From a virus (lineage: Duplodnaviria > Caudoviricetes), in the IMG/VR virus record IMGVR_UViG_3300031993_000045, positions 21,237 through 85,236 of that record: DNA of 64,000 nucleotides; one strand, given 5' to 3'. Within the stretch, counting starts at the first letter, position 1, and every line of letters begins with the position of its first letter. The position numbers were made by a program, and so were the translations under genes. This document shows, in pieces, positions 3,724 through 15,278 of this stretch. The notes beneath the pieces were generated by a model. That model ran no database searches. It was not told the origin of the DNA and saw only the letters and a list, made by a program, of their open reading frames with translations.

Positions 3724-3874
3724 AGACCCCAACTTTAAAAGTTGGCTGTTATTTTGCAGAAAACAGATGTGTCTGATGTAAAAAGTATCACCCACTCTCA
3801 CGAGCAAGTGATACAACTCCTTTTATTTTTGAGTCTTAAACCTTGTTAAAGGCGTATACCGCTGTATACATTTG

Positions 3875-3929
3875 TGGAGAATGTGGGACTCGAACCCACT
3901 GAGACCACCTAGCCTGGGTCGTATTCTCC
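3875..3929 (-). ncRNA. 55-nt tRNA-like RNA lacking an anticodon arm
   Basis: GGAGAAT/ATTCTCC 7-bp acceptor stem, A73, D-like arm GACC-CAGGCTAGGT-GGTC, canonical T-arm GTGGG-TTCGAGT-CCCAC. Confidence 0.55.
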
Positions 3930-4419: not shown

Positions 4420-4512
4420 AAGGAGTAGACGGGTTTGAACCGTCGACCTCTGGATTATGGTGCATCTTTGTCATCCATATGATCCAGCACTCTACCGCTG
4501 AGCTATACTCCT
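4420..4512 (-). tRNA. tRNA (Met/Ile2 CAT-like) with a 28-nt anticodon loop (about 21-nt insertion)
   Basis: AGGAGTA/TACTCCT acceptor, GCTC-AGCGGTA-GAGT D-arm, CTGGA/TCCAG anticodon stem around 4455-4482, GACGG-TTCAAAC-CCGTC T-arm. Confidence 0.7.
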
Positions 4513-8937: not shown

Positions 8938-9039
8938 CTATTTACAGAATATCCAACACACGGCAATCATCATTGTGAATGCTAATACTGTCATGAATAC
9001 GACTGCAATGTTTTCAGCAAGTTTTGACAATTTTTTCAT
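8938..9039 (-). CDS. single-TM peptide (33 aa; 37 aa if TAG is read as Gln)
   Basis: MKKLSKLAENIAVVFMTVLAFTMMIAVCWIFCK-TAG; the next in-frame TGA (8926-8928) overlaps the downstream ATG. Confidence 0.5.
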   Translation of the reverse strand: MKKLSKLAENIAVVFMTVLAFTMMIAVCWIFCK

Positions 9040-9052
9040 AACACAAATGATT

Positions 9053-9433
9053 TTAGTTGTCATTGTAATACACACATCTTACCATGTTTGGAGTGACAGA
9101 ATCTTCATCTTCTATCATTATCCGCATAGTATTGTCGAGAAGAGTATCAAACATCTTACAGTAAACCATAAAATGATGATGTTTAGCAGCATATGTACTG
9201 CTCAGTTCAAATGCTTCACGAGTCTCGCAAAGCTCCACATACTCATCGGTCTCACCGATGGTGTCCATGAATGGGAATGTAGTATTAATAGAATCCAACA
9301 AAGCCTCATCTTTAGCTATGATGTTTTCCATATCAACTATTGCTTCTTCATACATGGTTGTTGTATCCTGGGATATATCACAAGAACAACTGCAAGCAAT
9401 GAACATTGCTGCTATGAACAATAACTTATTCAT
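9053..9433 (-). CDS. putative lipoprotein
   Basis: MNKLLFIAAMFIACSCS-C-DISQD lipoprotein-type signal peptide. Confidence 0.65.
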   Translation of the reverse strand: MNKLLFIAAMFIACSCSCDISQDTTTMYEEAIVDMENIIAKDEALLDSINTTFPFMDTIGETDEYVELCETREAFELSSTYAAKHHHFMVYCKMFDTLLDNTMRIMIEDEDSVTPNMVRCVYYNDN

Positions 9434-9885
9434 AATATATGTAGTTTTGATAACTTTCACACTGTGCACTCAAGGAAGAGAGATGACCTCTTCCATAGAG
9501 CTAGATCTGTATTTTACCCTCGTGTGAATACGATTGAATACTTAATGGCGATCTTACTTCCATGCGCTCATTTACGGTGTCACGCTTGCCGTTGTCCGCC
9601 AGGCCATCAATAATACTGATACAAGTCACTTTGTATTGGTCTCAGTACTATCTAGCCCTAATCAAACTCCTTGCTAAACGTTGTGCAAAACGTGCACTGG
9701 AGTCAGAGCGGACATTTGTTCCTAAATCACAGGGCACATGTGACCAAACATTATGCCCCGTAGTTGCCGTCAAGGCTAATTTTTGAGTACCATAATGTTA
9801 TTAATATCCATTAACATTTTGCCGCAAATGGATACGTGATTTGGGATGTGCGTAATTTATCAGCATACACACACTGCTGTTAGTT

Positions 9886-9957
9886 TCCTAATACACAAAT
9901 TGTGTTTCGTCCCAGTCTCATCAGTTAGGATTTTTTATCGTGCTCCTGGGATGCACG
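9886..9957 (-). ncRNA. hammerhead ribozyme (type I topology) with loop-loop pseudoknot
   Basis: UCCUAA-CUGAUGA-G(ACUGGGA)C-GAAA-CAC(AAUUU)GUG-UA-UUAGGA; upstream hairpin CGUGC-AUCCCAGGA-GCACG whose loop UCCCAG complements loop II CUGGGA. Confidence 0.85.
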
Positions 9958-10002
9958 TGAGAAGTGAGTGTGTTTGATACACACCCACTCACTCTTATGT
10001 AG

Positions 10003-10302
10003 TTAGTCTTCGAAGATGTTGCTTCTGTCAGGATACAAGGCTATCTTGTTCATAAACTTTGATATCTTGTTCAGACTCTCAACGGCTGCGTCTTGCAACT
10101 CCTTCATCTCCTTGTCATTAGGAATCTTAGGAAAATCCTTGCGCTCATCGAAAGGAGTCTTGTTATACTTCTCCTTGAGTTCGACTGCAAGAGTCCAGTT
10201 TGAAACCTTTGTCCATTCGAGACCAAGAGCAATAGCATCTCCCTGGTTGAATTTAACACTCTTACTAACTACAGCTTCTGCATAAATGTTGTTAATTTCC
10301 AT
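10003..10302 (-). CDS. hypothetical protein (99 aa)
   Basis: ORF with AT-rich leader, TAA stop. Confidence 0.75.
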   Translation of the reverse strand: MEINNIYAEAVVSKSVKFNQGDAIALGLEWTKVSNWTLAVELKEKYNKTPFDERKDFPKIPNDKEMKELQDAAVESLNKISKFMNKIALYPDRSNIFED

Positions 10303-10415
10303 AACTTGAAAGTTTTAAGGGTTTATAATCGATTTAATGAAAAAGCTATATATTAATAAAATTTCACACTATGGTTTGTCGAGATGTACGCCAAAAACGG
10401 CGGAAAGTGGAGAGG

Positions 10416-10859
10416 CTAAGCCTTCTCCAACTTCCACGCGCTTTTGTTGTTCTCGTACTGACGTTTGAGGTCTGCTAAGCATTCGTCATACGTACCCATA
10501 TAGGCACGATGGAAAGTTTGCAGTTCTCTTTCGTCGTCACCTTCGCCGAATTTGATACTTTTGCACTCGCCGTCGGTAACGTCTAAAACTGTCACGTCGT
10601 AACACTCAATTCCGTCCGTTGGCTGGTCTTTGAAAACGTCATTAAGTTCCTTCTCAACAGCGTCTAATCTGCCAGTGAAAAGGTCTTTGATAGTGTTGTC
10701 AAAACCCCGCAGTACCAACCCGAAAGTGTATAAGTTATTTTGCATGCTTTTTTGCGCAAAAAGTGAGTTATTGTTATCACTCTTTGTGAAGAAAGCGGTT
10801 GCAAAAGGTTTATCACTTGAGAAGTCACTGCATACCTTGATGTAAGAAAATGTGGTCAT
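10416..10859 (-). CDS. hypothetical protein (147 aa)
   Basis: ORF with AT-rich leader, TAG stop; first gene of the standard-code left arm. Confidence 0.7.
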   Translation of the reverse strand: MTTFSYIKVCSDFSSDKPFATAFFTKSDNNNSLFAQKSMQNNLYTFGLVLRGFDNTIKDLFTGRLDAVEKELNDVFKDQPTDGIECYDVTVLDVTDGECKSIKFGEGDDERELQTFHRAYMGTYDECLADLKRQYENNKSAWKLEKA

Positions 10860-11024
10860 AATTGTGAAATTTTGGTGTGTTGCTAAAAATCTGTTTTAGC
10901 ACAGGGAGTGGGGTGTTCCAATCCGACAGCCGTAGTACGGGTGTGATTCATTGCTGTTTCGCGTTTTCACACCTACACAACAAAAAATTTTTAAAAAATT
11001 TTGCAAAAAAAAATCCCGAACAAG

Positions 11025-15141: not shown

Positions 15142-15213
15142 CGCCCACTGGTGTAATGGCTAGCACAGAAGGCTCTAACCCTTTTAGTCTGGGTTCGAAT
15201 CCTAGGTGGGAGA
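15142..15213 (+). tRNA. amber suppressor tRNA (anticodon CTA), Gln-type body
   Basis: GAAGG CT-CTA-AC CCTTT anticodon arm; D-arm TGGTGTAATGGCTAGCAC nearly identical to the tRNA-Gln(TTG) at 3653-3723; T-arm CTGGG-TTCGAAT-CCTAG. Confidence 0.92.
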
Positions 15214-15278
15214 CAAACAAAACTAACAGCATCCCGTAAGATCTGCTTTAGTTCATAATTTTTGAAATTAAAAGTAAT

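Follow-up and report, generated by a model that had tools for sequence, protein, structure and literature searches.

The − strand at positions 9886–9957 very probably encodes a functional type I hammerhead ribozyme of the pseudoknotted (PK), or RAGATH-1, kind, carried by an uncultured rumen crAss-like phage. The DNA analyzed (the window, 64,000 nt) comprises bases 21237–85236 of an 85-kb IMG/VR record that is estimated to be 84% complete. Judged from its sequence, the element is a complete ribozyme and a slightly divergent member of a known family. The assignment draws on an intact catalytic core, a full-length match to the Rfam family RF03152, and a loop–loop pseudoknot that covaries across phage relatives; self-cleavage is predicted from these features.

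Architecture of the predicted ribozyme

A direct reading of the − strand from 9780 to 10080 shows a hammerhead core that is canonical at every catalytic position, with A at H17 (Table 1). The topology is that of a type I hammerhead, with an open stem I (9930–9925 paired with 9891–9886) and stem III closed as a hairpin (9905–9893). A preliminary description of this DNA had proposed this core, three stems (I–III), and cleavage at a GUA triplet between 9892 and 9891, and all of these were found where it placed them. It had also described a stem II of a single base pair, with 6 nt of its loop complementary to the loop of a separate 5-bp hairpin on the 5′ side; this is confirmed both in the sequence and by covariation, and the six Watson–Crick pairs are U9951-A9910, C9950-G9911, C9949-G9912, C9948-G9913, A9947-U9914, and G9946-C9915. 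Within stem I, the CCUAA segment is paired in the family model, and U9930-A9886 is a possible sixth pair.

Table 1. Features of the predicted ribozyme and its immediate surroundings (window coordinates).
Feature	Position	Strand	Remarks
Upstream ORF, 99 aa, function unknown	10003..10302	−	Weak match to phrog_9042 (unknown function)
15-bp hairpin (12 + 3 bp, loop AUCAA), without U tract	9959..9994	−	Minimum-free-energy (MFE) fold of 9840–10010, z = −4.2
Helix IV hairpin	9939..9957	−	5 bp, C9957-G9939 to C9953-G9943; 4 bp in the Rfam model
Helix IV loop, 9 nt, AUCCCAGGA	9944–9952	−	9946–9951 are the pseudoknot nucleotides
A-rich linker AUAAAAAA, helix IV to stem I	9931..9938	−	2–3 nt longer than family consensus
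Stem I 5′ strand UCCUAA	9925..9930	−	Sequence and RF03152 alignment
Catalytic core CUGAUGA (C3 U4 G5 A6 U7 G8 A9)	9918..9924	−	
Helix II remnant, single pair G10.1 (9917)-C11.1 (9909)	9909..9917	−	Closes a 7-nt loop
Stem II loop ACUGGGA	9910–9916	−	Pseudoknot 3′ strand
Core G12 A13 A14	9906..9908	−	Sequence and RF03152 alignment
Stem III hairpin, A15.1 (9905) to U16.1 (9893)	9893..9905	−	4 bp with 5-nt loop, or 5 bp with 3-nt loop
Predicted cleavage site, triplet GUA, A17 = 9892	9891..9892	−	Core alignment and established hammerhead chemistry
Stem I 3′ strand UUAGGA	9886..9891	−	5′ end of the downstream product once cut
Noncoding stretch, cut to lipoprotein-like ORF	9434..9885	−	No convincing ORF; fold z = −3.5
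First downstream ORF, 126 aa from ATG 9433	9053..9433	−	Translation

A permissive scan of 9700–10100 returned a full-length match to RF03152 (RAGATH-1 hammerhead ribozyme), covering model positions 1–77 at 50.4 bits, with E values of 1.2e-7 in the 401-nt search, 4.6e-6 in a 15.5-kb search, and 6e-9 in a single-family search of the 85-kb record. This is the sole RF03152 match in the record, and control genomes yielded none above the family cut-off. In the cmscan alignment the helix IV hairpin aligns with the 5′ hairpin of the model, and the linker carries a 3-nt insertion relative to it; the linker of another collected locus, L012, is equally long. A comparison with the Rfam hammerhead models had been suggested as a check on the preliminary description, and RF03152 matches over its full length, though below its gathering score. 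Because the consensus of this model is exactly the architecture described, the design is the one that defines a catalogued family; the novelty implied for the one-pair stem II with its kissing hairpin does not stand, since this combination is already the hallmark of the PK/RAGATH-1 hammerhead (RF03152, PMC11300833).

Covariation and energetics of the pseudoknot

We assembled 88 distinct sequences, picked by core pattern only, from two IMG/VR core-pattern scans together with the phage relatives. The exact reverse complement of the inner stem II loop lies ≤45 nt upstream in 70 of the 88, where chance would give ~4%, and in 10 more it is found at −56 to −58, beyond a hairpin that has been inserted into the linker. 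A MAFFT alignment of 36 phage members (A1) was selected with ≤1 pseudoknot mismatch, and because its members were thus pre-selected for pairing, 70/88 is the unbiased figure. In A1, 98.9% of the pseudoknot cells are paired, and compensatory changes are present in three of the five pseudoknot pairs (for example, A-U 18/G-C 18 in one, and A-U 14/U-A 13/C-G 5/G-C 2 in another); none of 500 shuffles matched the observed pairing values, and slid registers pair at 21–46%. The helix IV stem also has compensatory changes in three of its four pairs, the G10.1-C11.1 pair is invariant in all 36 members, and the core columns are invariant except for N7. The loop–loop helix is thus real in the family, and it is retained in the window copy. 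The particular pseudoknot combination in the window, CCCAG/CUGGG, is common to no other IMG/VR contig among those collected; a second rumen contig has the same CCCAG/CUGGG pair with a different helix IV stem.

Folding calculations yield two competing structures. In the plain MFE fold (−15.6 kcal/mol), UCCUA of the stem I 5′ strand is base-paired to UGGGA of the stem II loop, giving an inactive competitor without the pseudoknot, and the nested hammerhead fold is at −6.9 to −8.7 kcal/mol. The loop–loop duplex is worth about −10.5 kcal/mol, and when the kissing nucleotides are reserved the hammerhead junction becomes the minimum-energy fold, so the pseudoknot is predicted to tip the balance to the active fold. 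That the modeled pseudoknot favors the active fold fits its role in the crystal structure.

Several variant arrangements are present among the collected loci. Ten of them (L044, L053, L056, L063, L072, L090, L094, L100, L104, and L106), on IMG/VR contigs of ~52–162 kb, have a helix IV–stem I linker that is interrupted by an extra ~26-nt hairpin, and keep helix IV and the complementary loop 56–58 nt upstream. Eight others (L048, L055, L064, L073, L085, L093, L096, and L105) are canonical in helix IV, the pseudoknot, and the core, but neither a compact stem III nor a 3′ strand for stem I was found in them; GAAA is followed by a conserved terminator-like hairpin and U tract, and from their sequences these may be split or otherwise unusual hammerheads. 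Paired PK hammerheads 90–310 nt apart are found in L011 (9820–10203), L073, and L076, and in L010 (12761–12933) a type III hammerhead comes ~40 nt after a PK hammerhead.

The host phage and its relatives

The portal and major head proteins match crAss-type PHROGs, and the head protein is 80–88% identical to those of Suoliviridae/Oafivirinae phages such as cr272_1, cr130_1, cr131_1, cr124_1, and Dulem virus 42. DNA of the phage is present in bovine gut metagenomes, and from these sequence data we assign it as a rumen (bovine-gut) crAss-like phage of the Crassvirales. A T5-like context was considered and dismissed, because by its capsid and portal proteins the phage belongs to Crassvirales.

RF03152 copies above threshold are present in four of the five nearest relatives (Crassvirales, Suoliviridae, Oafivirinae), and all of these copies are intergenic, co-oriented, and inside arrays of small ORFs. 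Phage cr131_1 (L029) has up to four PK hammerheads, including copies 86–147 nt upstream of tRNA-Gln and tRNA-Met; a weak RAGATH-12 match lies beside these tRNA-adjacent copies. We found no DNA relatives of 9500–10400 by megablast and blastn among 50,697 phage records, no relatives of either flanking ORF in IMG/VR, and no syntenic orthologue of the window copy in the 50,697 phage records, IMG/VR, or the fetched loci. Dulem virus 42, which has the closest capsid protein, codes for a PK hammerhead of 69.8 bits at L030:3934–4002 (− strand; PP511876.1 93433–93501), whose core reads CCGAUGA, with C in place of the U4 that is normally invariant; the PP511876.1 record has a 'hypothetical protein' CDS annotated over it.

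The window also contains several tRNA and tRNA-like genes. A tRNA with the anticodon CTA (an amber suppressor, labeled Pyl by ARAGORN) is located at 15142–15214 on the + strand and implies TAG recoding in part of the window phage; TAG recoding is known for some crAss-like phages. On the − strand, a tRNA-like gene at 4420–4512 scores 55.5 bits with Rfam and is not called by ARAGORN, and its anticodon loop has 27 nt for 6 model positions (~21 extra nt). Within the same tRNA-like array, a weak match to the tmRNA model (3872–3929, − strand, 17.9 bits, E 8e-4) probably reflects a tRNA-like acceptor/T-arm element and not a tmRNA.

Genomic context of the ribozyme

The ribozyme is intergenic and co-oriented with its flanking ORFs, which belong to a − strand array of small ORFs without known function. 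Its start is 45 nt from the stop codon of the upstream ORF (10003–10302), and the 15-bp hairpin at 9959–9994, which is not part of the ribozyme family, fills the gap between them; no terminator-like site was called at this hairpin. Scans with sigma-70, terminator, and Bacteroidetes-type promoter patterns located no promoters or terminators. We assume that the ribozyme is cotranscribed with the neighboring genes, and the 'early transcript' of the preliminary description is likewise an assumption.

The first downstream ORF (9053–9433) has an N terminus, MNKLLFIAAMFIAC, with a lipoprotein-type signal peptide and a lipobox-like Cys, and has no Pfam or PHROG family and no IMG/VR relatives. Its ATG at 9433 is 458 nt from the predicted cut. 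We surveyed the distance from cut to next ORF in the 52 family members with a downstream ORF (≥50 codons) in the fetched locus: about a quarter are at 21–31 nt, and most of the rest are at 110–760 nt, with a median of 249 nt. The window thus belongs to the long-gap class. A very short ATG-initiated ORF of 21 codons (9801–9866, − strand) starts 25 nt past the predicted cut, inside the 21–31-nt spacing of that quarter of the family.

The noncoding stretch downstream of the cut

No credible ORF was found in 9434–9885 with any of three genetic codes (code 11, TAG=Q, and TGA=W); a 74-aa ORF on the + strand (9562–9786) is spurious-looking by eye. The 422 nt from the cut to 9470 fold better than shuffled sequences (z = −3.5). 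A search of Rfam with 9400–9900 at E ≤ 10 returned only a meaningless snoRNA match, a local blastn of the 458-nt stretch against all fetched loci gave only chance matches of 15–28 nt, and exact words from a conserved block at 9560–9594 were found 0 times in IMG/VR and 0 times in the JGI metagenomes.

We placed the contigs of three RNA runs and of one DNA run on 9000–11000. Two rumen metatranscriptome runs from one study each have one contig of 333–336 nt, at depths of 65 and 43, compared with 2–18 for neighboring phage contigs; the contig is 4–17 times deeper than these. These abundant contigs match 9519–9594 and 9747–9770 at 95–99% identity, with ~154 unlike letters between the two matched blocks and a loose extension to ~9826, and adapter letters abut 9519/9522. 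In a further RNA run (X3), 9153–10444 is uncovered. We consider 9519–~9826 a candidate abundant small RNA, on either strand.

The preliminary description had proposed that cleavage leaves a leader of roughly 450 nt ahead of a lipoprotein gene. Its geometry holds, with 458 nt and a signal peptide in the ORF that follows, although the stretch may be a separate abundant RNA. The combination of structure, no ORF, no Rfam family, and high depth raises the prospect that an active ribozyme generates the 5′ end of a separate, previously undescribed noncoding RNA, abundant and structured and ~310–370 nt long (9891 to ~9519, − strand), instead of an mRNA leader. The adapter letters at 9519/9522 indicate a defined molecule end, and noncoding gaps of 110–760 nt follow most family members. 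However, the abundant RNA could instead be an antisense transcript of the + strand starting at 9519–9522, and no homologues of the stretch were retrieved from IMG/VR, the JGI metagenomes, or the fetched loci. Moreover, the contigs, which do not reliably show RNA ends, end ~65–110 nt before the cut, and 9827–9891 and the ribozyme itself have no RNA contig; no metatranscriptome contig spans the ribozyme or the cut site, and, as contigs cannot show ends, this has no bearing on cleavage. On balance we think it unlikely, if the strongest of the alternatives, that the stretch is such an RNA, and favor a functional ribozyme that would cut a polycistronic transcript.

Divergence from the family model

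The window copy misses the RF03152 gathering threshold by scoring 50.4 versus 56.3 bits, a threshold that is a curation cut-off and not a structural feature. A default Rfam scan of the window reports four tRNAs only, and the ribozyme is absent; as it lies under the curated cut-off, routine annotation would miss it. Three features account for the score deficit: an insertion in the linker, GUA as the triplet, and a very short loop on stem III. The cleavage triplets among the IMG/VR and phage-record sequences are GUC (42), AUC (9), AUA (6), and GUA (4), and a passage of PMC1636495 also notes GUA sites in natural hammerheads. From these sequence comparisons, neither the longer linker, the GUA triplet, nor the short stem III loop is disqualifying for membership of RF03152.

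The same features could be taken as signs that the copy is decaying or cleaves too slowly to be of use, a relic left from arrays of small genes that are rich in ribozymes in Oafivirinae phages. The subthreshold score, the stable competitor fold at −15.6 kcal/mol, and the single copy in this genome, compared with up to four in cr131_1, are consistent with such decay. However, not one core position is mutated, all four helices are intact, and so is the pseudoknot, which is kept through a lineage-specific compensatory pair that decay would not preserve. Each apparent defect is also found in copies above threshold, with a GUA site in cr130_1 (74.7 bits) and a 4-bp stem III in L008 (69.2 bits), and far longer linkers are tolerated in other members. 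The second rumen contig with CCCAG/CUGGG on a different helix IV stem also argues against decay, and we regard a relic as improbable. A chance resemblance in AT-rich phage DNA, for which the subthreshold score is the one point in favor, is effectively excluded by E values of 1e-7 to 5e-6 with full-model coverage, by an independent 6-bp pseudoknot that the covariance model does not score, and by control genomes with no match above the cut-off.

Comparison with other self-cleaving RNAs

The discovery of the PK hammerhead is credited to Weinberg et al. 2015 (Nat Chem Biol; PMC11300833), and the pseudoknot stands in for helix II in the crystal structure (PDB 8YDC, Zhan et al. 2024; PMC11300833). 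A designed representative of the family cleaves at 16 per min, faster than an extended hammerhead (PMC11300833). The window ribozyme shares with this family the type I topology, the canonical core, a helix II cut down to G10.1-C11.1 with a loop of the form ACNNNGA, an additional 5′ hairpin (helix IV) whose loop is 9 nt, the loop–loop pseudoknot, the A-rich linker, and a location between small phage genes. It differs in scoring ~6 bits under the gathering threshold, in a linker longer by 2–3 nt, in GUA for GUC, in a stem III of 4–5 bp, and in its CCCAG/CUGGG combination. A further difference lies at U9951-A9910: most members have a G opposite this A, which forms a G:A cap in the crystal, whereas the U in the window makes a sixth Watson–Crick pair.

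The secondary structure of the PK hammerhead is pistol-like (PMC11300833), and in the window element, as in the pistol ribozyme, a hairpin is joined to a linker and a pseudoknot reaches an internal loop, the connectivity being nearly identical (PMC11300833). The chemistry differs, with the G8 2′-OH serving as general acid in the PK hammerhead and a metal-bound water in pistol (PMC11300833). We rejected assignment as a pistol ribozyme because the core is that of a hammerhead (CUGAUGA…GAAA) and the Rfam pistol model has no match in 9700–10100 at E ≤ 10. A classical type I hammerhead was also rejected, as helix II is only one pair and no model of the hammerhead clan for classical hammerheads matches 9700–10100 at E ≤ 10.

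Extended type I and II hammerheads of phages and prophages are similarly intergenic and co-oriented with short phage genes, and have been proposed to cut long transcripts into gene-length mRNAs (PMC3088659). Some form a pseudoknot between stems I and II, but unlike the window ribozyme they have a real helix II of several base pairs (PMC3088659). Tandem phage ribozymes cut ~2-kb polycistronic transcripts in vitro, and in a halovirus a transcript 5′ end was mapped at the ribozyme site (Perreault et al. 2011; PMC3088659). The theta (minimal HDV-like) ribozymes are also small self-cleaving RNAs of gut phages, with TAG recoding, suppressor tRNAs, and a processing role in phage transcripts; however, they are a separate ribozyme class sited next to tRNAs (PMC10879173). 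The nearest same-strand tRNAs to the window ribozyme are >5 kb downstream, and the nearest called by ARAGORN, a tRNA-Gln, is 6.2 kb away.

Proposed mechanism and function

We propose that the ribozyme would be transcribed within the − strand array of small genes, and that the helix IV and stem II loops would then form the 6-bp loop–loop helix, which would replace stem II and dock beside stem I. With G12 acting as general base and the G8 2′-OH as general acid, the RNA would cut itself after A9892. Self-cleavage is predicted to be cotranscriptional and would split the polycistronic transcript. The 5′ product would be an mRNA ending with ORF 10003–10302, the 15-bp hairpin, and the folded ribozyme with a 2′,3′-cyclic phosphate; the 3′ product would begin with a 5′-OH at U9891, followed by the 458-nt noncoding stretch and the downstream genes. 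The end of the upstream product, with its hairpin, ribozyme, and cyclic phosphate, may resist 3′ exonucleases.

The preliminary description had the cut separating the 10003–10859 genes from the rest of the − strand array, and from the gene arrangement this is plausible. The likely purpose would be to make the two halves of the polycistronic transcript independent of each other in stability or translation. The proposal that phage hammerheads cut transcripts in this way goes back to Perreault et al. 2011 (PMC3088659), and a review describes the purpose of such phage ribozymes as still unproven (PMC6765202).

As a ribozyme, the window copy contributes little: how such RNAs fold and react, and that phages carry them, is already known, and the family is common in this phage group. 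It is of interest as a natural variant that has a U-A pair for the G:A cap, a lengthened linker, and GUA at the cut. It also means that divergent real members score below the Rfam gathering threshold, so that copy numbers in Crassvirales are underestimated. If the stretch after the cut does prove to be a discrete RNA, the long gaps that follow most PK hammerheads of crAss-like phages might be ribozyme-released RNAs rather than mRNA leaders. The structured and apparently highly expressed noncoding neighbor of this ribozyme offers a concrete place to test what phage ribozymes are for.
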